A stretch of 63,946 nt of DNA, filler included, from Sarea resinae (GCA_026026165.1; 5 parts of 5 records of this genome joined end to end with filler, not necessarily neighbours in it), one strand, 5' to 3'. Counted from the whole stretch's first letter, positions 17,884 to 54,314 are shown. The notes: generated by a model not told the origin, from the sequence alone. Program-made: numbers and translations.

Positions 17884-17983
17884 NNNNNNNNNNNNNNNNN
17901 NNNNNNNNNNNNNNNNNNNNNNNNNNNTTAATTAATTAANNNNNNNNNNNNNNNNNNNNNNNNNNNNNNNNNNNNNNNNNNNN
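17884..17983. other. Artificial contig linker
   Basis: N44-TTAATTAATTAA-N44, with stops in all six frames. Confidence 0.99.
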
Positions 17984-18108
17984 ACCCTAACCCTAACCCT
18001 AACCCTAACCCTAACCCTAACCCTAACCCTAACCCTAACCCTAACCCTAACCCTAACCCTAACCCTAACCCTAACCCTAACCCTAACCCTAACCCTAACC
18101 CTAACCCT
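17984..18108 (-). repeat. Telomeric repeat (CCCTAA)n on +, i.e. TTAGGG; chromosome end
   Basis: About 21 perfect CCCTAA units at the very start of the contig. Confidence 0.97.
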
Positions 18109-18421
18109 GAGACGGGGGGTTACCCGGGGATGCCGCGGGGGGTTACCCGAGGACGCCACGGGGGGTTGCGCGAGGGGTTACCTGAGGTTCGCGCGGGGCG
18201 TTACCCAGGGGTGCTGCAGGGGGTTACCTGGGGGTCGCTCAGGGGGTTACCTGGGAATGCCGCGCGGGGTTACCCGGGGATGTCGCGCGGGGTTACCCGG
18301 GGATGCCACGAGGGGTTACCTAGGGGGTTACCTAGTTTTGCCACAGGGGGTTACCCGGGGGGTTGCACGCGGCGGTTACCCAGGGGGTTACCTAGGGATG
18401 CCACAGGGGGTTACCCGGGGC
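18109..18421 (+). repeat. Telomere-adjacent GC-rich satellite with a GGGGTTACC core
   Basis: About 14 GTTACC cores, mostly at 22-23-bp spacing (e.g. GGGGGTTACCCGGGGATGCCGCG). Confidence 0.9.
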
Positions 18422-19769
18422 GCGCTCGCCGGCTCGCTCAGTCGCGCGGTCGCGATGCGGTCGGGGTACAAGTTGAAAGTAGCCCCAACTAAGGTCGAGC
18501 AACCCTAGAGGGTTCAGTGGGCCTGAACAGCCTCAACAGTAGGAGAGAATCGATCAAGTCGCATAGAAAGGTCGCTCCTAGAGGGTCAGAGATCTGGCAG
18601 GCGGTGAAAAAAGCGAGGTTTAGCGACCCTTTTCGAATCGCAATCCTACTTAGCGCAATCCTACTTTCTGCCGGCCGGGCCGGCCAATCAGCGTCGAGCG
18701 GTGAGGCTACGTACCAGGTACGTACCGCGCAATCCAAGTAGGATAGCGACCTGCAATGCGGTTAGGCCATCCAGTGGGCTCGAGCCAGAAAACATTCGGT
18801 CATACGACGAAGAGCCGCATTCTGCGCACGAAGGGAACCATTCTCCGCATGCAACACCGCCAGTGTAGCGCTTTCGTCAATGGCTATGCCATCCTCCCCA
18901 AGCGAAGTGGTCTAATCGTCGTTGGAATCCTCCTCTTTCTTGCGTTTCAAAAGAGGCGTGACTCGGTCCTTGGATGGATAAGCCACTATATCATCGTAAC
19001 TAGCGAATGACTAGGGATGGAGATTCAGTTTCTTAAGCTCGTCCCAGAGCAAACGTCTAAGCACATCCTTATCAAGGCCATCAAACTTCTTCAGGAAGCG
19101 GATATATCTGTCTTGACCCGAACCTGCCTTTCCTAGACATATCTATCTTTATCTTGCCAGTCGACCTTTACCCCATCAAGAGTAAAATCACTGAAAGTGC
19201 GCCAAACCTAAGGGCTTTGATCAGTAACTCGAGAGAAAAGGATAGATGGCTCTCTATACTTCACCACCGCCCACATCTGAGAAGAACGCAATAGCAGCCC
19301 TCTTTGGATATAGGTCATTTTGCCATGACTCTAATTCTCACACCAGCCTTAGGCATATTTGAGGATTCAGTCACGAACGGAAAGGAAGAGATGATTAGAA
19401 GAATGAAGATTTGATGACAGAAATATGATTGGATAGAAGAAGAGATGTCTGGTAGATTTCAGTCGATTTCAGTCGAGGAGAATGTGAGGGAAAGAAGTGG
19501 TGATAGAAAGAAGTGATAGAAAGAAGTGAGGTGAGGTCAGGACAAAGTCAGCGAATGGAAAGAGATGAGTTGAAGAATCAACCGATACTAGGAACCATGC
19601 TTCCACCAGAGACCAAGATTACAGATCACCTTGGCAAATATTCTTACCTAGCCGTTCCGTTGAACCTCGATGTCGCTAGACCTCGCTGCTGCTCGGCTTG
19701 GCTGCTCCTCGACTTTGCCGTTGTCTGTGTCGTTCAAACTCGCTGCTGTTCAACATCGCTACCGCTCGA

Positions 19770-20753
19770 CAGAAATTAAACCGATGCTCCGTTATGCACA
19801 CGATCAGCGTGTGCACTTCGCCGAAGCGATAACGTCGGATCGTCTACGAAGGGAGTTCTATTGGCCTACACGAGTGCAGGACGTGCAATAGTGGTGCCGA
19901 AGCTGCCACAATGTCAAATCGGGTGTGGACCATTGCATCCCAGTGCCCCGATGCATTTTGGGCCCACGGATCTAATAGGAATCGATTATATTGGCCGATC
20001 AATCCTTCTTGTCCGACAATCAGGAATGAATATGTGCTACTAGCTATCGACTACTTCGCGCTGTGCGTCTGGACCAGTGCATAGCCGCTAACAATATACT
20101 CAGATGACGGTGAGATCGGTCGCAATACCTTTGGGAAGTCAGTGTCTCCATCAATTATCGCTTCGTCCGAGTTCATGGATACAGCCTGTCCCGATTGATG
20201 TTTGGATTCGACCCAGTGTTGCCCCATATTGCTATTCCAGAGGACATGGATCCTGATGCCTTCGATACAAGTATCGATGAACGGCCCGCTCACGTGCACG
20301 CCATACATATGGCAATGCGATATGGCAATGCAAGATAAGGATGGAGAGAAAAGCATCGATCGTCTGAACCTCTGTCAGACTCTTATAGCCAACTCCAAGG
20401 CAACAAGGCATCAGTCACCAAAAGAGGGAGGCCTAGTTCTCATCAGAAATATTTCTCATCAGAGATTTCGAAAGAGACAAAGCCCATGGCGGAAGTTGGA
20501 TCGACGATAGCAAGGACCAAAGCTACTAGTCAAAGTCACACATCACAGGCCTAGTGCCCACGTCAAAGACCTTTACGAGGATGGTACGCAGAAGAGGTAT
20601 CATATCGGCGACATGAAAAATTACACCTCAAGAGATGATCAAGACAAACCTAATGAGGAAAACCTTCATGGACTAGGGACCACTGCCAATCGATCTGCTA
20701 TGATCTTCGCTGGATATCAGGATCAGAGAGCTTTCACTCTGAACCAGTGCTGA
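19770..20753 (+). mobile_element. Degenerate Ty3/gypsy integrase
   Basis: HHCC region (AHD..HF...FYWP...WCRSC), core DLIGIDYIG and YVLLAIDYF, C-terminal KLDRR*QGP...RYHIGDMKNY. Broken by stops and frameshifts. Confidence 0.8.
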
Positions 20754-20882
20754 TCAGGACGAGAGACTTGCTTCTGTAGTCTTGCACTACATGCTCTGAT
20801 TGTCATATCAGTCAAAACCTCACCGATTCTATCAGGTCATACCCTCACTACATCTATCGGCACAGCTATCTATCTCGGCACC

Positions 20883-22199
20883 ATGGCTCCTCGTCAATCC
20901 AAAACCGCCAAAATTCACGAGAATGACATCGCTCGTGGGATAGCGCCTTCAAATCCACTTAAGATCGAGGATAGCGTCATAGTGGGAAGCCTCAGGAAAG
21001 ACCCTACTGGACGAAAGCGTTTGGTATACGCGAGTCTTGCCAGAAGCGGTGAGATAAGGCGATACTTCGGACATATCGATGATAACGGAAACCGGCTTGC
21101 ATGGGAAGAAGATCCGGCCTATGCAGCAAACCCAACCAGAAGTTCAATCATTGACATACAAGATATCGACTTCTACCCTGACTCACGTCCTGATCGATTT
21201 GCCAGTATCGCAGAAGAGAAGTTACAGATCTATCGACGACTGCAAATCACTGCTGGATACCCCCTCCCCTTCGACTCCGAAGAACTGATGCTCAGTGCGC
21301 AGCGACAACCACGCAAAGTCAAGGACAAAGGGACTGGCCAACAAGGATCAGACCGCACTTCCGTTCCCAGGGCTTCGCCTATATCTCCTAGGATCAAATC
21401 CGAAACCGGGGAAGCTGTCCAGGAGGACACCAAGCAATTGCTGGGCAAGGGAATCGTCGTTATCTCGGACGACGAAGAGGAAGCGGCAGATATCATCGAT
21501 GAGGGCCGCTTCACCGTCGATGAGAACCGCTTCAATATCGATGCAAGTCGCTTCAATTTCGGATTCCCGTCTACCGCCTCTTCTGCTTCACGATCTATTG
21601 GTCGGCCGTTTATGGCGGAGTCTCCCTTGAAGCCGTCTACGTCTTCTGCTCGACGAGCTATCGGTCAGTCGTTCACAGCGGAGTCTTCCTTTAAGCCGTC
21701 TCCCGCTTCATCTTACAAGCCGTTTACTGCTGGTCTCCCGTCTGCCGTTTCACAATCTCCTGATATCACTGATATCGCTGATATCGCCGAGTCTCCCTAT
21801 AAGTCATCTGGAGGCGCTATCGGTCAACCATCTATCGCTAAATCTTCCTTCAAGCCGTCTACCGTTTCACGGCTTATCGATGCCACGGAGCCTCCTCACA
21901 AGCGGCAAAGACAGCTCATTCCTTCGGGACTACAAGGCACCGCGGTTCCCTCGCTTCAAGTGGAAAACCAAATCTTGAAAGAGCAGGTATTACGATACAA
22001 GGAGGATGGCGATGTGTTTCTTGCCATAGCGAACGATATGCTAGGGACAGACCAGAAAACAGGAGAGATGTTTCGGTTGGGATACGCGTTCGATCGTGCC
22101 GTACAGACCCGACTCGATCACCATGACGACGTTTTCCTCAGCATTCGGCAAGGAGAGCGGATCATCAAAGATGGTATCGATGGGAAGGATGCTCGTTAG
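20883..22199 (+). CDS. Intact 438-aa hypothetical protein downstream of the gypsy integrase
   Basis: Stop-free ORF with a strong start context (GCACCATGG); globular-looking N-terminal ~130 aa, Ser/Pro-rich internal repeats and a C-terminal heptad segment. Confidence 0.7.
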   Translation: MAPRQSKTAKIHENDIARGIAPSNPLKIEDSVIVGSLRKDPTGRKRLVYASLARSGEIRRYFGHIDDNGNRLAWEEDPAYAANPTRSSIIDIQDIDFYPDSRPDRFASIAEEKLQIYRRLQITAGYPLPFDSEELMLSAQRQPRKVKDKGTGQQGSDRTSVPRASPISPRIKSETGEAVQEDTKQLLGKGIVVISDDEEEAADIIDEGRFTVDENRFNIDASRFNFGFPSTASSASRSIGRPFMAESPLKPSTSSARRAIGQSFTAESSFKPSPASSYKPFTAGLPSAVSQSPDITDIADIAESPYKSSGGAIGQPSIAKSSFKPSTVSRLIDATEPPHKRQRQLIPSGLQGTAVPSLQVENQILKEQVLRYKEDGDVFLAIANDMLGTDQKTGEMFRLGYAFDRAVQTRLDHHDDVFLSIRQGERIIKDGIDGKDAR

Positions 22200-22374
22200 G
22201 CCCAAAAAATGGGAACCGGAATGGCTAGGATGGTTTACTTTCAGAGGGGTTATGCTGCTCTACGCTGCCCTCTCTCTCTCTACATTGCTTCGTGTTACTG
22301 TCTTTTCTGGGGGATTACTGGGCTTCTATTGCTGCGATTGGCTTGATCTTTTTTTTTCCGGTGGTCCGAAAATC

Positions 22375-22603
22375 AGAAAATAGGGGATGTCTGTGGGCGG
22401 TTTTCGGCAGTTGTGCAGTTTTTGCAGTTTTCGATGACCAATCAATAGTGCTAAGCAAAGAAAGCGGTAAGCAGCTAATACGGAACTTGCTAGGATGATT
22501 TTTCGTGTTTCCTAGATCATCTGCCTAGCTAGCGAATGACGCCGATCATACCAGTTTTCGCTGCTTGTTATGACTCCTGATTATCGGGTCTTCAGTGCGA
22601 ACA
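22375..22603 (+). mobile_element. Candidate polypurine tract and 3' LTR of the + strand gypsy element
   Basis: AGAAAATAGGGGA (22375-22387) followed by TG...; a segment TGTGGGC...GCGAACA (22392-22603) has TG/CA ends. No second LTR copy is visible in the window. Confidence 0.4.
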
Positions 22604-23149
22604 AATGCGAGTAAAGGCTCGCCAACCGGCCGAGTACCGAATAGATCAGGTCTCATCAATCCCCTTGCCGTTGCAAAATCCTGGGATACACGTAGAACAA
22701 CTTTTGATATGCTCTCTTGTAGCTCACATACCGTGCCATTGCCGGCCGTGTAGGCACCTTCCGCTATTCAGTGTTTGTCCCGGTTCACCTTCCAGGCAGT
22801 GTGGCGTCGCAAGGGAATTGTTTCTCTAGCCTACAGCACTGCAACTCAGTCAACTCTAGTATGGCTGTGTCATAAACAAGGTAGTGACGACTCTCGCCTC
22901 CCCCAAAGAACGGTATTCACCGGTAATTCGAACGTCTATTTCCGCTTCTTACAATTGCACGTTAGTCGCAAGCGTGCCGCTATTTCCCAGGGCGATCAGC
23001 TTGCCTACCTTGGTCATTCTCATCGTATCTCTCGCCGCTTCTCTACTTATCTGATCTATCAAAATCTTGCAACGGGCGTTCTTATGCCAGCTCAGGCCGA
23101 CCGAGGAGGAGTAGTTATATTCTGACAACTGCTAGCTTCTATCACCATG

Positions 23150-26100
23150 TCCTTTCGCTCATCACTGCCTCCACCGTCCCATCCGAACTCTTCAGAAAGG
23201 TCCTTATTTCCCACCTCGTATAGCCAGGTCTACCACGATCAATACGACGGCCCTGAGGGACTCCTGTTCCCCACTAAAGACTGGACTCAGTCAGCCCTTT
23301 GTCTAGTATCTCTAACGCCTTATCTACTGACCTATACTCTAGACAAGTTGTCATAACCCTCATCACCCTAGAACCGGGCGCCATTATCCAGAGCCGCATC
23401 ACCATGTTCTAGCAATGGGACAGAAGCTCGCCTGATCTTGCACCTGGTAGCATCCGCCTTGCTAGTAATAGCATTGGCGGCGGACGGTTTTTCTGGTCCG
23501 AGAGAGATCCTTCCGGTAAGTTTTCACTTCAGCCAAGTCCTTGACGAAGTATACCTATTCATTTAATGGCACAGCCATCACCTTCGGACCGTAAGGCTCT
23601 ATTAGATCTATGGGTCCTATGTAATCTAACCCGAGCATTTCCCTGGGTTGGAACCGGGGTATTAGTACCAGGGAGGCGCTTCTGCGTCGTGCTCCCACTA
23701 GCTGACAGGTATATTTTCTATATCTACGGTCCGGGTAGGCTAATAGAATTGTCCATGGTCTTCAAGGCGGTGGCAAAGTATGTATTTGACTGCTTTCCAT
23801 CTCTTTCGACGTACAATCTCTTACGACAGACAGCAAAAGGTTATCCCCAAGGATGTATGGTTTTATTGCGGTAATTCCACTCCATGTTCTGCCTTCCAGT
23901 CCATCCAATCCATCTAATCCATGTCGTAGATAGGCAGTGACATCCGTGTACATATTGCATTCCATCCACTGCGTCCATGGTCCATCTAGTTCGATGACCT
24001 CCGGGGCCTGGACAAACTCATGGGTAGTCGTGTCTTCTGTCACGTTCGCGGCCATTGTCATCCTGTCAGCATCTCTAGCTTTGCAGTCGCTGGCGTACGA
24101 TCGAGGCATTCGATCGAGGTCATCGGCAATTCTCCTTATGTTTGTCCTGCCAAGTCTGGGGTGCACGGCGTAGTCGTATTCGGACAGTCTATCCTGCCAA
24201 CGGGCTATCCTTCCATGAGTGTCTGTACCGTTATTGCGTATGGTCTTCATTGTTTCATGGTCGGTGTAGGCTTTTGTGTGGTACTGATTCCTCATCATTA
24301 GCCACTGACTCTCTGTCAAACATTGGCTCCATGTGTCGAGGTCGCCAATAATGGTTGGCTTGCATGGAATCTCTCCGACAGAAGGTAGTGGGCCAGATAC
24401 CAGGTCTGAAACTTGCGAACATGTATGTGGAGCGCCCTTTAGGCCCTGTCCCATTCGTCGATACAGGTATTGACCATGAAGAGTGGTAAATGCCCAATAT
24501 CCATTGCTAGCGTCGGCTGAGATGAAACAGTTGAATTTGGATTTGATCATTGTTTGTAGGACTTCCTCCAAAGTATGCATCGGATAGACTGATTTCACGG
24601 TGTAACGACCTCACGGTGTAAAGGAATTCAACGGTCGCACTAAGTCAGTGCTAATAGGCTGAACAATCTAGGAACATCACGAATAGAGAGGCAAGTGATC
24701 GCAACTGTATTGATTGGAATGGAAGGACTGCGTATGCGAAACCCTACTCCAAGAAACATATATCCCGAGATCAGGCCAGACCACACGTGGCAACCCTGCT
24801 GACTGATACCCCATCGAATCTACTCCGCGACATCGGTTTCCTTATCAGTGGACCACTCAGCTCCCCGTCCTTTTTCGGTGGGAATAGTGTTTGAACTCCC
24901 CACTCACTACTTCTCCGAGTGATGAATCCCGCTTCCCCGAGTGATGACTCCCGCTTCTTCCATTGCCGGAAAATCTCTGCAGCGAACGGGGTCTCTATAG
25001 AATTATATCTGCTATGCCCTTGCAGCGCGTCAGGCTCATCCCCGCTGATATGGCGCCTGGTCCATATCAGCGGGGCGCGTCTCCCTGGTGTTCGACGAGG
25101 TAGCCATAACTGTCGATCTCATCTAGAAGACGCTCAACTTCTTCGTTGACTAGTGTTTCGTCCTCTGTGGTCATTGACGGTGGTAGGCTATAGTCGTTCT
25201 ATCCGGGATTCGGAATCAAGTCTGTACGCTCAGTGGTGGCGGAGGTCCCTCCGACTGTATGCTCTATCCCATCATGTCCTTGGAAGGTCTATTTATCATT
25301 CTGATGGTTATGAATGCATCCGACACGTCTATGCCAGATTCGACTCAATAATAGGTCGAAACCTATCGCGCTAGAAATAATGAATGCTCTGTGGGTGGTG
25401 AGGACTCCATCCAGATTGACCGAGACCCATACTAGTTGGTCAAAGTATGCGTGGTATCGTTAGGCAGACGGATTCGCCAGTGTCTATCCTTAGGATGTGA
25501 CGCCAGTCCTGGGATGCTCTTCACTAAATCTTGGCTGATGAGTCCGACGACTGCTCCGCTATCGACCAAAGCCTTATCAGTGCGCGTATTCCCAATCCCA
25601 GCGGTGATATAGACCGGTCAGCTCGCCATCGTCCATTGCTTCGCTTGTGATTGGTGGTGGTTTTGAGACTGGTTCAGTCTGCCCTCTATCTTCGGTGCTG
25701 CAGCTACCTGGGCTGGAGCCTGTTGATTCCGGTTCCTTGGCCCTCGTCGCCTGACTATGGATGACTATAGCTAGTACGCCAATCGTCGTTGAGGGGAGGA
25801 GTCTAGAAGCTGACTCAATGGAAGATCGACTATCATTTGATCGAATGCCGCTGTCAGGTCAAAACGATCGCCCCCGGCCAGCATATGAATTGGAGCGGGC
25901 ATTGCAAAGTTCTTCCTTGTCGCTACTCACGTGCCTTGTGATCGTGCATTTCTGGTTTGCGTCCCTGTCCTTGCCTCCGCGGGAGGTGTTGGCATAGGTT
26001 GATCGTTATCTTCTTCAGACGTGGGCTGACGTGGCACGGATGGCCCTCTAGCCATTCCTCTGTCTCCGGATGGAGGCAAGTCCATAAACTGACTTGGACC

Positions 26101-26430
26101 AGCGTGATCATCCTGTCTCACAGATTGACGTGGAGCGTATGGCTAGCCTTGTCCCGTACTATGGGCTCGCTGATGTCGACTCCGAGTAGCGGGCATACCA
26201 GGAAACTCTCTCAGGTATGGTACATCCTGCAAACCCACCTTCCGGATGTGTAAGTAGCCCTGTAATGGCTGCGGCGGGAGCAGCTGTTGTAGCGGTTGCT
26301 CCTTGTCGATCTAGCTTCGCTGTCTCTCGTTGCCTTATTACTTCCACTGTCTATGGCTAGCAAGCGATGGCTATATCGAGCTCCACAGTAAGAAGGCAGG
26401 CAGCGTTGATATAATTCCAAAGCATCGTCA
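23150..26430 (-). mobile_element. Degenerate Ty3/gypsy gag-pol relic (protease, RT, RNase H, integrase)
   Basis: Protease KALVDSGAVV (~25545-25575); EWGVQTLFPPKK; RT FISADASNGYWA and RRMGQGLKGAP; RNase H YTDH...RIARWQDRLSEYD...IADDLDRMP; integrase EMLGLDYIGP (~23610-23645). Order PR-RT-RH-IN; internal deletions and stops. Outer boundaries are approximate. Confidence 0.85.
24601..24832 (-). mobile_element. Solo LTR nested in the RT region
   Basis: 232-bp segment TGTCGCGG...GGTCGTTACA (minus) with TG/CA termini, TATA-like GATATATG and AATACA; flanks CCGA/CCGT form a near 4-bp duplication; it interrupts the pol relic. Confidence 0.6.
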
Positions 26431-26620
26431 AGCGAGGCGAGGCGAGGCGAGGCGGTGTGGTGGCAAGGCAAGGCAATACCACAGCAAGGCGAAGCAAATC
26501 AAAGCACTCGGACGTAACGCACAGCCAGGGCGGGCCAACGTAGCAGCAACAGAGGCCCGGATCCAGACGAGCCAGGCATGCGTATGGCTGAGATAAGGGT
26601 GTATGGCCGGCGGGAAGCAA

Positions 26621-28175
26621 CTATTCGCTCTCTTCCAAATCATTCTGTCTTACGCGCCGCCTCCTTCCGGCTGCAGACCTCGCTAGGCTTTGATGGATGC
26701 GTTCGCCGTAGGCCGCGATGAAATAGCGGCGAAAGAATCTCCCGATTGCGGAGTTGGGAATAGTATCGCCAGCAAGGCATTGGGCTAAGTACGCAAGGCG
26801 GATGTGCAAGTAATCAAACCAAGCTATGTCATATACCTCGCTGAAACCAGAGCTGAGATACCTGTCAGTTCGGAGAAATCTTCATTAGAGACAGCAGCAG
26901 CGACTTACCGTGCGACATTTTCGACATTGATCCTAAACACCAACCAGAGTTCGTGGTTGACAGTGTCCGCCAATTCCACCCACGCATCACGATCGACTGT
27001 GATTCCCTCAAGACCTTCGATGATAACGATCTTTATATTCGATGTTTCAGTCATTTGTTGGAATCCAGGCCATGATGCGAACGTCCTTTCTACCGGGGTA
27101 CCGGAATCTGTGTTATAATTCTTGGACAGGTTCCGACACCATTGAAAGCCTCTTTTCGCCGATATTTTTTCCCATGTGAGTGAATGCGATATAATTGAAT
27201 GCCCGGGTAGACCTCTCTGCGCCAGGTATCCACTGACTAGCTTCATATTGCCCATCTGGGCTCGGATCACGTCTTCGGTATAGTCGAAAGAATACCGGGA
27301 GCACACACCTAATTGGCCTACAGTTCGCGCCCAGAAAATACTCAGATTATTGTCTTCAGTCGGGTCATCGGCAAGTATCGGCCGCGCACCGTATCGAGTG
27401 CTGGAAACCCTTTTCGGATTGAACGGATGCAGGTTCGTGATATGTATTTTCAATGATTGCTCCCTGGTCCCTTTTGTTCCCTTATACTGGTAACCTGACG
27501 GGCAGGGTTTGTACAGACACTTCTTGCCTGTATTCGACGCGAGATGTCCCATTCTGTGGTCATGCCAATCTTCTTTCGATGTCAGGGTCGCATTGCAATC
27601 ATCCCAAGTACACACATCATACGGAGAGGTGGAGGGGAGGGCGGAGGCACTCGCAGTATCGGGCCTTTCGATATCGACACGCTCGACATCCTGTTTGCCC
27701 AAGCACGCAGTCATTAGCATGATACCAAGATGCTGCTTTATTTTGTTTCACTTACCACCATTTCCTCGTCGTCTGTATCGTTCACGAAAAGTCGGCCCGA
27801 GAGTACTGTTGGTCCGGCCGAAGGCGCAGCGAGGGATTGCGGGGACGGGGACAATTTTGCTCCACTCATCTGTATTTCCAAGCTCGGCGGCTATTGTCAG
27901 TATCGTTAGCATCATTCAACAAAACTTATCGACGAGCCTTTGCGGAGGAGCATTCATTCAGGTAGGAGGCTCTATCGACAAGCTTCATAGGGAAACCTGC
28001 AATGGGGTAGGACACATACTTCGTGCTCTTGTCTGTTGCTAGGGCCGTCTTCGTCCTCGACAGCGGTTTCGATCTCTGGTATGACCTGAGCGAGGAGTGG
28101 ATCAGCAATCACTACTGTCATCTCATCGAGGGCATATTGCTTCAAAGGCGTACCTCGTGATGCTGTCTCTTCCAT
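26621..28175 (-). CDS. Multi-exon C2H2 zinc-finger protein (3' exon structure unresolved)
   Basis: CTWDDC...HRMGH and CLYKPC...HITNLH fingers; two phase-0 introns with GTATGT/GTAAGT donors and GCTAAC/GCTAAT branch points join upstream exons to ORF 26905-27720. Confidence 0.6.
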
Positions 28176-28243
28176 TCCTTCTCCCGGCGTCTGGCTGCCG
28201 GAGACTTGCGGTATTTCTTTGGAGGCATCTCGCAATCGATCGG

Positions 28244-28307
28244 TCAATTGATCAATCAATCGATATCAATCAATCGATAGATAGGTCAGTCAATCAAACA
28301 ATCAATA

Positions 28308-28350
<43 letters not shown>
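28244..28350. repeat. (ATCA)n degenerate microsatellite
   Basis: TCAA/ATCA tandem run. Confidence 0.9.
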
Positions 28351-31300
28351 TCATAGGTTGTTTGCCAACGAGAGAGAAAAAGAGGATGGAGGGCTTCAAC
28401 GAACGATACACAGACTGGGACAGTCCTGTTGTCGTTGAACTAAGGTTTGTTGAGTGTCGTAATGGTGCCTTGCAATTGGGACGAAACCGTCCGACATTCT
28501 TTGGCATGTCGACCAAAGCGAGATATGCTATACCCAAGAACATCATGGTGGCGAGGGCACAGCAAGGGCACCTACCCTTGCCAGTCTGTATCGCACAAAG
28601 ACAGTGCCAGCTCAGAGCTAATTCCGGTGTCGTTGAAGATCGGGTATACAGATGTCGTTGAGCGGTGATCTAGTGCAATGATTCGGACAAGTCGGAAAAT
28701 ATGATTTGGACTCTCTGTAATCCGTGTACGCAGACATCATCTTTATAGATACGGCACGATGCTTTGTCACATTTGACTCTTGAGATTCTATTGCTATCAT
28801 GCATGGTAGACGCACGAAACGATCAACCCGATCCAATCCATCCTATATTTGGCAGGTATTGCACTAGCCATTACTCGCGCAACTCCAGATTGCTCTGATG
28901 CGTGGGCGAATGCTGTTGTAGTGACTGCCAGATAGGGTGGTTGGTTCTGGACAAGAGCCGCCGTCTGCTGGGGCTGTGATAGAGTCGGGATGATCGAGTG
29001 AGATGCCGATAGGGTGGCGAAGACGACCGAGACATGTGCCGAGAAGGAGGTTGAAACAGAAGTTGACGAATGTGGACGAGTTTCGATGGTCGCTGGCGAA
29101 TTTCGAGGGAAGTGGCAAGTTCTGAAGAGATTAAGAGTCCCATTGTGACACGGAAAGAAGAAATCGGTCTGGCGCGAATGAGGCTCATCGGGTTGTTGTA
29201 CAATCATGTTTGAACCATGAAGCATCACTGACTCCACCTCATCAGTGGCGGCCGCTTCGCAGACCGCAGTCGGTGAAATCCTGGTGGGTTCCTGATGACG
29301 AGCTGTAAGAAACCCCTCGAAGAGTTGAGACGGCAAATTGGCTTGCCAGATGCGAATTTCAAGGACGCGCGGACCCTAAGACCTTAGCGCGTCATCTGAA
29401 GTGAGCAAGGAGTGAGCAGCAGCAGCCCGACGGTCTATCCATTCTAAAATCTGATTGTATTTGACCGTTGGACTGCCGCGATCGAGGCTCACAGCGGCCA
29501 TGATTATTCAGACTGAAAAGGTAAAGGATGAAAAATTGAGAAACTGTATTGAGAGACTGTATCAAGAGGGAAGTTGTGTCAACAAACGTACCTAATTGTA
29601 GATAATGCTAGAAAGCACCTCGCAAATCAACTATCGCAGTGTAAAGGCCATGCTAGAAGTTTAGAAGAGTTAGATTAAAGAGGTAGGTAGATGGAATAGA
29701 CAGACATCCTGAATAGACCGTGCCTTACAGCCTCATTAGGCCGCTTCCGAATGCCACTTCTATGCAAGAGCGACAGGCTGCAGGAATCCACCACTATGTA
29801 TGATAGAGGATTCAGTTGATTCAGTGAGGTTGTGGGCATTGAAATGACAAGGGTGGTTTGATGATGGTGAACTCGGTGTCAGTGTTAGAGCGCGATCTAC
29901 TAGGTAAGCCGATTCGAGTGAATACCTTAGTTGATCGCGCTGGTAGAATCGACTAGGTAGCTGTGGTTTAGTACGAAGTACTCCTGCTGTTGTTAGTGAG
30001 GCCGCATCCTCTGACCTTATCTTTAGTCACCTTACCTTTAGCCACCTTACTTTTGGTTCGGTTTACCTTACGTTTGGTTCTGGATTAGCAACTGCAGGCT
30101 GGCGATACAAATCGTGCACTCTCTTACAACCTCCTAGAAGGTTAAGCATCGTCAACCTAAGAGTAAGAGGTAGAGGTAGAGGTAGGTTGATTTACAGTAG
30201 GTAGCCTGTCACTTGGCGCTAATTTGCCGAATAACAACGTTGTAACCTCACGCAGATTGATTAGCTAGTAAAGGATCGCGTATGATGTTATGATGTTACT
30301 AATACACAGAAACTAGCGGAGCCAGGATGTACTGCGTAGTACTTCGTACTCCGTAGACGAAATCATTCTTGAACCATGTGCCATAGCATGCAGAGGTCCA
30401 CATAGTACTGAAAAGGCTGAGTCGTGGATGTCACGTACGGAAGTAGAAAGGTGTTGAATGAAGCTATGATCCGAGCTGTGGTTTTATCCACTCCTCAGCA
30501 CGTGACTAATTACGGTATCCACCATGAACCATGCCTGTAGCCACTTCCTAGCTCCACAGTACCTTCTTCTACTCCGGAGTACTGAAGAAAGACCGAGTCA
30601 TGGAATCCACCAATGAGGTGGTGATGATTGAATCTACGTGCCGACCGGTGGTTTTAATCGTCGCCTAATCACGTGCCGTACGGGCCTAACTACGGTAGCT
30701 CATTCCTCCGCTCCACAGTACTATCAGGAGCGATAAGCGAGAGCCATACTTAATACCTTGTGCCTGTGTGTACTTTTCATCCTTGGTTACCAGTCAGATC
30801 CCTACCTCCATTAGTCGGCAGCCCCGATCTCGCGTGACTGGACAAGGTAACCGGATTAGGCAATTGATGCCGCGCGATGCCGCGATGCATAAGGTAGGCA
30901 AGTCATTAAAAAGTCATCATGAGAGGGATTATGTCTCCGCCGCCAGTGTTAACGATATCTACGTTCGTCTCAGCTGCTTCAGATGTCTCTACCAACGGTC
31001 AGTGATGTGAGCAGAGGAATAATGCTTTATCTGGCTGTAGCGATTATTGCGGCATCTTATTCTTTTCCATGGAATATCTACATCTAAATCCACTTGCGGT
31101 CCATTTTAGACATCCACCAACAGCCAATCTATGATCTCCGACAATCCACCGGCGTCTACAGACGCCATCTGTACCATTTCCTGCTCTTGCAGCCATGCGG
31201 CTTATCAACGAGTCATGGGAGGTCGCTGTCAGACCCGGTAACGAACGATCTCCACGCTACGAGGACTATCTCGCTTGATCCGACGATCGATGAACAGGCT

Positions 31301-31377
31301 TTATCCAGCGGTTCAAAGAGAACTGTAAAGACCTCCTCGGAGGCAAATATAGGAAGAAGCGAGAGAAAGAGAAATTA

Positions 31378-32028
31378 GTGCAGAACATTGAGGTCGACAA
31401 AGGGGAACTAAATTCGAGATTTGACAAAGTTCATGGGTCTGATGGCCTGGTCGAGACACTCCTGCTGTCTACAGCGGCGATGATAGAGCTGCGCATCTTT
31501 CTTGAATATGGAGACTATCTGGCTGTAAGCCTTGAGAGCTTAAGAAGGCCAACTTTCAGTAGCAGCATGTGGAGGTTACACCCGGAATTAAACTGGCAAG
31601 AGGTTAACACAAGGCTTGAAGCCGAAGAAGCTATGCTTACGACATACCACAAAAGCCAGCCTCACCCTATCATCGCTGTAAGGCGTGACACCCCATGGCT
31701 TACGGATGTCTATAAGGCTGCACAGCAGCTTAATATAGAGTCATCGGACCTTCGTCACGAGATTCAGGCATATGCCCAAAGGAACTCCCTCTGCTATAAC
31801 AGCATTGAAACATTAATCAACAAGTGCGACTTTTCGGCCCTAGGACGCAAATTGCTCAAGGACAAGGCAGCACTTGATAGCATCTTCCAACGAAGCCCGC
31901 ACGAGCAGATAACGGTGCGGAATTGTATCACGCGGATACAGAACGAGTGGTTTTCGGCTCTTATTGGAATGGACCAGGGGTGGTGTCGAACCCGAGCGAG
32001 AAGGCGAATTAGAAGATGCGAAAGTTGA
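31378..32028 (+). CDS. Hypothetical all-helical protein or relic, possibly HEPN-like
   Basis: Open 216 codons of helical amphipathic sequence with EIQAYAQRNSLCY; start uncertain (GTG; first ATG at 31480). Confidence 0.45.
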   Translation: MQNIEVDKGELNSRFDKVHGSDGLVETLLLSTAAMIELRIFLEYGDYLAVSLESLRRPTFSSSMWRLHPELNWQEVNTRLEAEEAMLTTYHKSQPHPIIAVRRDTPWLTDVYKAAQQLNIESSDLRHEIQAYAQRNSLCYNSIETLINKCDFSALGRKLLKDKAALDSIFQRSPHEQITVRNCITRIQNEWFSALIGMDQGWCRTRARRRIRRCES

Positions 32029-32429
32029 AAGCAAGACTGGCAAGCCGCAGGTCCGACTCGGCAACGACTGTCGTTTTAGAGGACTGATCTAGTGTGAAGA
32101 GCCGATTCCGAGGGCGATCATCCAAGGGCAGAAGCTTTGAGCCGCCTCGAAACTCGTTACCTTTGTCTTTTCTATAGGAATTGAATCTAGTTGCTATCTC
32201 GTTCTGCGGGAGAATTGATCAAAAAGGGCCCGCTTCCAGGTTCCATTTTCACGTTACTTTTTGGGTTCGTCCGGACTATTTCATGAGGTAGACGGATGAA
32301 GATTGCATGATTCTGGAACGACACCTTGCAGGAGGGGGCCTTGCTTGGCTTGCTAGATAGGGGAGTTCTGTAGTTGATTGTCTTGATAATCTAGTAGGAC
32401 ATCAGGCTGCAACAAAGGAGTAGGTACAT

Positions 32430-32529
32430 NNNNNNNNNNNNNNNNNNNNNNNNNNNNNNNNNNNNNNNNNNNNTTAATTAATTAANNNNNNNNNNNNNNN
32501 NNNNNNNNNNNNNNNNNNNNNNNNNNNNN
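32430..32529. other. Artificial contig linker
   Basis: N-TTAATTAATTAA-N. Confidence 0.99.
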
Positions 32530-43482: not shown

Positions 43483-43582
43483 NNNNNNNNNNNNNNNNNN
43501 NNNNNNNNNNNNNNNNNNNNNNNNNNTTAATTAATTAANNNNNNNNNNNNNNNNNNNNNNNNNNNNNNNNNNNNNNNNNNNN
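43483..43582. other. Artificial contig linker
   Basis: N-TTAATTAATTAA-N. Confidence 0.99.
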
Positions 43583-54214: not shown

Positions 54215-54314
54215 NNNNNNNNNNNNNNNNNNNNNNNNNNNNNNNNNNNNNNNNNNNNTTAATTAATTAANNNNNNNNNNNNNNNNNNNNNNNNNNNNNN
54301 NNNNNNNNNNNNNN
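54215..54314. other. Artificial contig linker
   Basis: N-TTAATTAATTAA-N. Confidence 0.99.

Follow-up and report, generated by a model that had tools for sequence, protein, structure and literature searches.

We analyzed a 63,946-nucleotide stretch of DNA from Sarea resinae (GCA_026026165.1), referred to here as the window, in which the remains of a Ty3/gypsy retrotransposon lie next to an intact open reading frame (ORF). This frame, whose product is P0001, is very probably ORF3, the third gene of a Ty3/gypsy lineage that lacks a chromodomain, located in the sense orientation between pol and the polypurine tract (PPT) and 3′ long terminal repeat (LTR). The ORF3 family codes for protein, is carried by elements, and evolves under purifying selection; the window copy is open, whereas the adjoining integrase has decayed. 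We lean toward the view that ORF3 was retained after its element had become immobile; its proposed role as a nuclear regulator of the element is read from sequence and is held a little more tentatively. The best overall reading, an element-borne and probably nuclear regulator retained in two immobile copies, is given roughly even chances. The window consists of separate contigs joined by artificial N spacers (17884–17983, 32430–32529, 43483–43582, and 54215–54314), and features should not be read across a spacer. The ORF and the integrase remnant are on contig C41 of the S. resinae assembly (window 17984–32429).

An Open Frame next to a Decayed Integrase

The integrase remnant matches Pfam Integrase_H2C2 (PF17921) above the cut-off (E 1e-6). 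Lesions were counted by frameshift-aware alignment to the pol genes of two other elements in the genome, on contigs C52 (41% identity) and C42 (34% identity). These two different intact pols returned an identical set, 3 stops and 4 frameshifts over 865–868 bp, which bears out an earlier note on this DNA in describing the integrase as broken by stops and frameshifts. The remnant also contains a 13-nt tandem duplication (20307–20331) that breaks the frame. By eye, its tail ends like the C42 and C52 tails, and no chromodomain was seen. Repeat-induced point mutation (RIP) was rejected as the cause of the decay because the RIP indices of the window copy are normal, as are those of the C137a copy described below, unlike those of nearby RIP-type repeats. 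No similarity to gag, protease (PR), reverse transcriptase (RT), RNase H (RH), or a 5′ LTR was detected upstream of 19766; the element is therefore a remnant truncated at its 5′ side within the integrase zinc finger, which the earlier note had missed. Since its 5′ half is gone, an LTR pair is not to be expected.

ORF3 begins 129 nt past the stop codon (20751–20753) that closes the integrase tail. The original description of an intact 438-codon frame, in the same orientation and about 130 bp behind the integrase, was accurate, and the frame carries no lesion. The chance of 438 stop-free random codons is about 7e-10. Read-through of the pol stop codon was rejected: the window ORF and the pol tail share a frame, yet the C42 spacer has a further in-frame stop. 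The ORF3 stretch is single copy by DNA search of the genome and by depth (376 on one 7767-nt contig versus 345–358 for its neighbors; depth was taken from sequencing run X1, possibly the source of the assembly), and the genome DNA search revealed no sister copy of the window element. Sequencing runs X2 and X3 gave nothing for this stretch, which does not show that it is absent there.

ORF3 Relatives within the Genome

Six clear ORF3 family loci were found in the genome, three of them intact and three decayed, and four of the six follow gag or pol sequence. Contig C42 holds a complete, young element consisting of an LTR, a primer-binding-site (PBS)-like site, gag, a pol in the order PR-RT-RH-integrase (IN), a 437-residue ORF3, a purine tract, and a 3′ LTR of which 127 nt can be seen before the contig ends, 100% identical to those of the 5′ LTR. 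Its ORF3 (C42:152–1462) lies between the pol stop codon and the PPT/3′ LTR. Residues 13–99 of P0001 are 31% identical to this protein, with a score reached by 0 of 2000 shuffles.

The second intact relative, C137a (C137:11865–13268, 470 residues), is 68% identical to C42 ORF3. Its element is internally deleted, with short gag and pol stubs, and its LTRs are eroded (the 5′ LTR is mostly lost, with a 15-nt gap in the rest, and the 3′ LTR is shortened), while ORF3 is whole. A retrocopied spliced RNA was rejected as the origin of this copy, as the deletion junction is a 7-nt microhomology and not a splice junction. Both C42 and C137a have kept a TATA-like element and a pyrimidine-rich leader ahead of ORF3. 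The earlier note had suggested searching for homologs between an integrase and an LTR; in this genome, C42 and C137a have homologs between the pol stop codon and the PPT/3′ LTR. Support for its proposal that a gypsy lineage carries an accessory protein comes from the four loci behind gag or pol, from the one complete element, and from a ratio of nonsynonymous to synonymous substitution (dN/dS) well below one, given in the next section.

A separate observation concerns the 5′ region of these two elements. The PBS-like site and 5′ leader are ∼85% identical (C42:8305–8507 versus C137:10541–10826) in two copies that have nearly saturated synonymous sites in ORF3, which points to a packaging signal or structured RNA element under constraint.

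The domain profile matches the three decayed remnants, on C86, C65, and C137 (C137b). C86 and C137b are rows of alignment A1, and all three are rows of A3. The C86 remnant is 57% identical to P0001 over 44 residues, and C65 carries the third. C137b sits behind a gag fragment that has 63% amino acid identity to C42 gag, whereas its ORF3 has just 30%. A weak match on C63 (E 0.28) was not recovered by the profile and was left out of the six loci. ORF3 is absent from the related, complete element of C52, and neither C42 pol nor C52 pol matched a Pfam chromodomain family. The closer relationship of the window integrase to C52 and the mismatch between gag and ORF3 in C137b suggest that ORF3 may have been gained, lost, or swapped between gypsy subfamilies.

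The genome also contains a complete element at C108:124069–132586 with identical 144-nt LTRs, a chromodomain-like pol end, and a sense ORF3 of 435 residues bearing a CxxC-CxxC pattern; a stop-riddled copy is present on C2. This chromovirus ORF3 was rejected as a homolog of the P0001 family (hhalign probability 0.1%).

Selection on ORF3 and the Distribution of Lesions

Alignment of C42 and C137a ORF3 requires eight gaps, all of them in-frame. The comparison gave dN/dS of 0.17 (bootstrap confidence interval 0.12–0.23) at dS 1.2, with 0.12 for the N-domain, 0.33 for the linker, and 0.09 for the C-domain. These values indicate that the two genes diverged under purifying selection and encode a real two-domain protein. 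P0001 is too diverged for this test.

Lesions in the window copy are confined to the integrase, which has 7 over 868 bp; the 1314 bp of ORF3 have 0 (conditional P 0.0016). The C137a copy follows the same pattern, with 3 in 488 bp outside ORF3 and 0 in 1407 bp within it (P 0.017), and the joint conditional probability for the two copies is about 3e-5 before ascertainment. All three tandem arrays in ORF3 (21, 63, and 9 nt) keep the frame; the one in the integrase (13 nt) does not. The idea that the gene was kept under selection after pol died has statistical support in these two copies.

Features of the ORF3 Protein

The motifs IKSE, IVVISDDEEE, and PPHKRQR are all present in P0001, as the earlier note had said, and the rarity of the corresponding patterns was judged against 2000 shuffles. 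The pattern resembling a SUMO-interacting motif (SIM) is rarer than expected by chance in P0001 (2.2% of shuffles); in the other two intact members, it occurs in 19–25% of shuffles. The SUMO consensus and nuclear localization signal (NLS) patterns are at chance level (18% and 11% of shuffles, respectively), and the SUMO consensus is not present in P0002. In all three intact members, a SIM-like core follows the N-domain, and after it come a low-complexity region and a basic patch; taken individually, the SIM-like core and the basic patch are mostly at chance level. A VIDL core follows the N-domain in both of the other intact members.

The N-termini of the three intact proteins are polar, with no signal peptide-like segment, and none of the three has a transmembrane segment (highest 19-residue hydropathy 0.55 for P0001 and 1.38 and 0.28 for the others). 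An env gene is excluded by this absence of transmembrane-like segments in the predicted proteins, in agreement with the initial view that the product is not env-like. Both structure models place a three-stranded β-meander in the N-domain, but with predicted local distance difference test (pLDDT) scores of 46 and 32 the models are too weak for fold assignment. A low-confidence model predicts short helices in the C-terminal tail, which the earlier note had called coiled-coil-like.

The Candidate PPT and 3′ LTR

The purine tract and TG downstream of ORF3 form the sole site of this type in 22200–23600; a different part of the window has ∼3 such sites per kb. The candidate LTR is close in length to the 203-nt C42 LTR. 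A genome search with 22200–22800 found no second copy (one candidate, the self-match), and neither C41 nor the LTRs of relatives offered a convincing partner (best score 30 versus a shuffle maximum of 27). Of the PPT and 3′ LTR previously described, the sequences themselves are present and the LTR is unproven; that 22392–22603 was not found again in the sequence searched, an outcome which the earlier note itself had named as refuting, counts against it. We regard the 3′ LTR of the window element as plausible. LTR-like matches on C124 and C56 were set aside, as the examined flanks held no ORF3.

Table 1. Features of the ORF3 locus on contig C41 (window coordinates)
Feature	Position	Strand	Remarks
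Telomere repeat array	17984–18108	none	6-nt unit repeated 20.8 times with 100% matches; start of C41
Subtelomeric 23-nt GC-rich repeat array	18112–18420	none	Similar sequence near the end of contig C65
Gypsy integrase, decayed and 5′-truncated (zinc finger, core, tail)	19766–20753	+	Pfam PF17921; frameshift-aware alignment
Spacer between pol stop and ORF3	20754–20882	+	Ends in CACC-ATG-G context
Intact ORF3, 438 aa (P0001)	20883–22199	+	438 codons plus stop; zero lesions
Conserved N-terminal domain, ∼aa 26–99	20958–21179	+	Common to all family members; β-rich prediction of low confidence (pLDDT 46)
SIM-like hydrophobic core with acidic flank, aa 191–200	21453–21482	+	Pattern in 2.2% of shuffles
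Low-complexity middle region	21495–21787	+	Three tandem arrays (periods 21, 63, and 9 nt), none of which shifts the frame
C-terminal region with basic patch (aa 337–343) and predicted helices	21864–22196	+	Marginal likeness to C42 ORF3 C-domain; pLDDT <50
Purine tract, candidate PPT	22375–22387	+	By eye, like the purine tract–short spacer–TGT junctions of C42 and C52
Candidate 3′ LTR, TG...CA, 212 nt	22392–22603	+	TG at 22392, CA at 22603; unproven

Chromosomal Context

The subtelomeric position ascribed to the element is confirmed, as C41 opens with a telomere array and the element lies 1.7 kb behind it. The intervening repeat and its flank (18112–18770) are also found at other places, and depth is raised over ∼18450–18770, where variant contigs are numerous. 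A possible decayed coding sequence with a coiled-coil-like stretch (∼18770–19150, − strand) lies between these repeats and the integrase remnant. On the other side, a second decayed gypsy element (23600–26208, − strand) faces the ORF3 element head-on; it retains gag, PR, RT, RH, and the start of integrase, is related to the complete C52 element, and was likewise missed by the earlier note. At ∼22680–22760 (− strand), a short stretch resembles, by eye and in one frame, the end of an integrase zinc finger; it is not among the genome-wide PF17921 matches. The same telomeric contig has open frames at 26908–27747 (− strand, 280 residues) and 31294–32025 (+ strand, 244 residues) with no significant Pfam family.

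Searches beyond the Genome

P0001 found only itself among 8000 scored candidates from 5.8 billion proteins, and again only itself in a set of 1.84 billion representative proteins. The C42 ORF3 region gave 2 matches from 261 candidates, both from the S. resinae assembly, and the domain profile recovered only the same 3 proteins among 8000 scored when run against longer proteins. Metagenome contigs (0 of 230 candidates confirmed, 0 of 36 pattern matches) and viral contigs (0 of 37 for P0001, 0 of 2 for C42 pol) added nothing. These searches were limited to words or single sequences and were poor in fungi, so they do not demonstrate absence.

No Pfam family was assigned to P0001, to C42 ORF3, or to their C-terminal parts, and the N-terminal piece gave two weak matches (E 0.07 and 0.13). 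The best sequence match in the PDB, to a bacterial protein (E 0.012), was rejected, and the ESM Atlas gave no usable match. A fold search of 48161 chains with the N-domain model (pLDDT 46) had a best Z of 3.3, with none at 5 or above. A possible likeness of the N-domain to a repeated host domain of filamentous-ascomycete proteins, which would favor a host origin, could not be confirmed. In the genome itself, the N-domain motif pattern has three matches, namely C42 and two that the profile does not recognize. The earlier suggestion of a captured host gene gains no support, as neither the protein searches nor the pattern search of the genome produced a homolog of host type. No description of this protein family was found in the literature surveyed, a scope outside which lay supplements, repeat databases, and subscription papers.

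A Model for ORF3 and Its Alternatives

In the model we propose, ORF3 would be transcribed from its own internal promoter and could, for that reason, outlive the 5′ LTR. Its product would be a soluble nuclear regulator in which the N-terminal β-rich domain binds the DNA or RNA of the element, the SIM-like core of a disordered linker docks on SUMO-marked chromatin, and the helical C-terminal domain oligomerizes. While the element is active, ORF3 would most likely promote its expression against host silencing, acting in trans on chromatin state or expression. Selection on the element would bring no benefit to a single copy that cannot move, and the survival of the orphaned copies on C41 and C137 therefore most likely reflects host-level selection. 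The host might use them, for example, as a brake or modulator that acts in trans on related elements. The earlier note had offered an accessory protein and a domesticated gene as alternatives. As the gene is element-borne and was probably retained later, the two are not mutually exclusive.

Several observations weigh against this model. Of the two intact pols, that of C52, an element without ORF3, is the nearer to the window integrase, and the similarity of P0001 to C42 ORF3 is marginal at the C-terminus (scores reached in 58 of 2000 and in 260 of 2000 shuffles). A tblastn search around the C86 and C65 remnants detected neither gag nor pol, and testing for an integrase tail upstream of these two gave no significant result. 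The searches beyond the genome yielded no ortholog. The dN/dS of 0.17 comes from two other members and possibly dates from the active phase of the element. The lesion test on the window is biased, as the ORF was picked for being open; C137a was instead found by homology. With half of the six loci decayed, retention is not general. No TATA-like hexamer was found in the window spacer ahead of ORF3. The anti-silencing or targeting function and the nuclear location would depend on motifs of which most, including those for SUMO and the NLS, are no rarer than expected by chance, and the AlphaFold models (pLDDT 46 and 32) are unusable.

The main rival is a non-autonomous carrier, in which pol decayed while an intact helper was still mobilizing the copy in trans. 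Selection at the level of the element would have preserved ORF3 during that phase, with no benefit to the host required, and the insertions seen today would be too young for ORF3 to have broken down. We consider it unlikely. In its favor, C137a retains the cis-acting parts for such mobilization (the PBS region and leader 85% identical to C42, gag and pol stubs, ORF3, and a purine tract), and the genome holds intact helper-type elements with LTRs that are 99%–100% identical. It fits poorly with a window element that has no sister copies and has lost its entire 5′ half, and with the eroded LTRs of C137a. Moreover, mobile multi-copy families in this genome tend to show RIP damage (many TAG/TAA stops), and the window and C137a copies are undamaged by RIP.

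ORF3 could also act on the RNA or the particle of the element, as a Rev- or CERV-like export factor or in copy-number control, in which case it would survive in dead copies because it dominantly restricts newly arriving relatives. The Cer1 element of C. elegans reportedly encodes such a nuclear-export accessory protein, CERV. This role would suit ORF3 as a soluble protein of two domains, with basic patches in all three intact members. Against it, no sequence or fold connects ORF3 to such proteins, and the N-domain has no overall excess of basic residues (16 K+R versus 19 D+E in residues 26–140). We think this reading improbable.

Still less credible is the capture of a host gene or domain into the 3′ region of an element, or an unrelated subtelomeric host gene that happens to adjoin a scrap of integrase. 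The C86 and C65 remnants, with no detectable gag or pol nearby, speak for such an origin, yet no host-type homolog emerged from the protein searches or the pattern search of the genome, and the C42 homolog sits within LTRs. Finally, the chance survival of a neutral relic that has so far escaped being hit, which the choice of an open frame and the three decayed family members would allow, is hardly tenable given the joint probability for two copies and the tandem duplications, all of which keep the ORF frame.

Returning to the retained regulator, a bolder version would have ORF3 as an undescribed, fast-evolving accessory family with a new β-rich nucleic-acid-binding domain, moving between chromodomain-less subfamilies and co-opted twice independently by the host (C41 and C137) against retroelements. 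This we hold to be rather doubtful; if true, it would be domestication of an accessory gene, unlike that of gag, pol, or transposase. Extra ORFs are common in LTR retrotransposons and nearly all are without a function. The S. resinae genome offers a small natural experiment: a complete young element with ORF3, a related one without it, two dead copies in which ORF3 alone is intact, and three decayed copies. If retention is real, a fungus keeps a transposon accessory gene for its own use, and the case points to a new regulator of retroelements in a genome with RIP-like damage. If it is not, there is still a new ORF3 family with two strongly constrained domains.

Comparison with Known Systems

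The env gene of errantiviruses and retroviruses occupies the same slot as ORF3; ORF3 differs in having no signal peptide-like or transmembrane segment and no sign of a spliced form. VANC of the Arabidopsis VANDAL transposons is an anti-silencing protein encoded by the element. VANC and CERV of Cer1 offer a possible functional analogy, as element-encoded accessory factors acting in trans, and serve as a lead only, with no link in sequence or structure.

Fungal Gypsy elements are split mainly into chromoviruses and a Ylt1-like lineage (PMC2864245 and PMC3248453). The C42 and C52 pols resemble the latter, non-chromoviral lineage in their PR-RT-RH-IN order and their lack of a Pfam chromodomain match, a likeness limited to these features. 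The relevant passages of these two papers describe no ORF3 for the Ylt1-like lineage, and in PMC3248453 neither ORF3 nor third ORF occurs as a term. Fungal co-option has been screened for by means of known transposable element domains fused to host domains (PMC10799480); a screen of this type would probably miss a domain-less ORF3.

Extra ORFs are nonetheless on record in fungal gypsy elements. The legend to Figure 3 of Novikova et al., 2010 (PMC2864245) refers to an "additional ORF of unknown function" and is silent on which elements bear it, and brtn is the extra ORF of Botrytis Boty/BcGypsy1 (10.1101/2021.04.13.439636). By these descriptions, P0001 can be set alongside them as an extra ORF of a fungal gypsy element. 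It differs in being sense, since PMC7264820 gives the Boty ORF as antisense. The relevant passages of these three sources make no mention of fungal additional ORFs being retained in dead copies.

The closest parallels in position come from plants. As outlined in PMC7264820, plant Ty3/gypsy elements carry sense and antisense additional ORFs (aORFs) between pol and the 3′ LTR that are conserved across copies and have no database homologs, and ORF3 resembles them in all three respects. Among them, gene23 of maize Grande is antisense, with its own promoter and a nuclear product, and by analogy offers a precedent for a nuclear accessory gene with its own promoter. The plant sense aORFs summarized there are env-like with transmembrane segments, whereas P0001 is sense, soluble, and fungal. 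The slot itself is known, as are extra ORFs in fungal gypsy elements; the protein family that fills it here appears to be undescribed.

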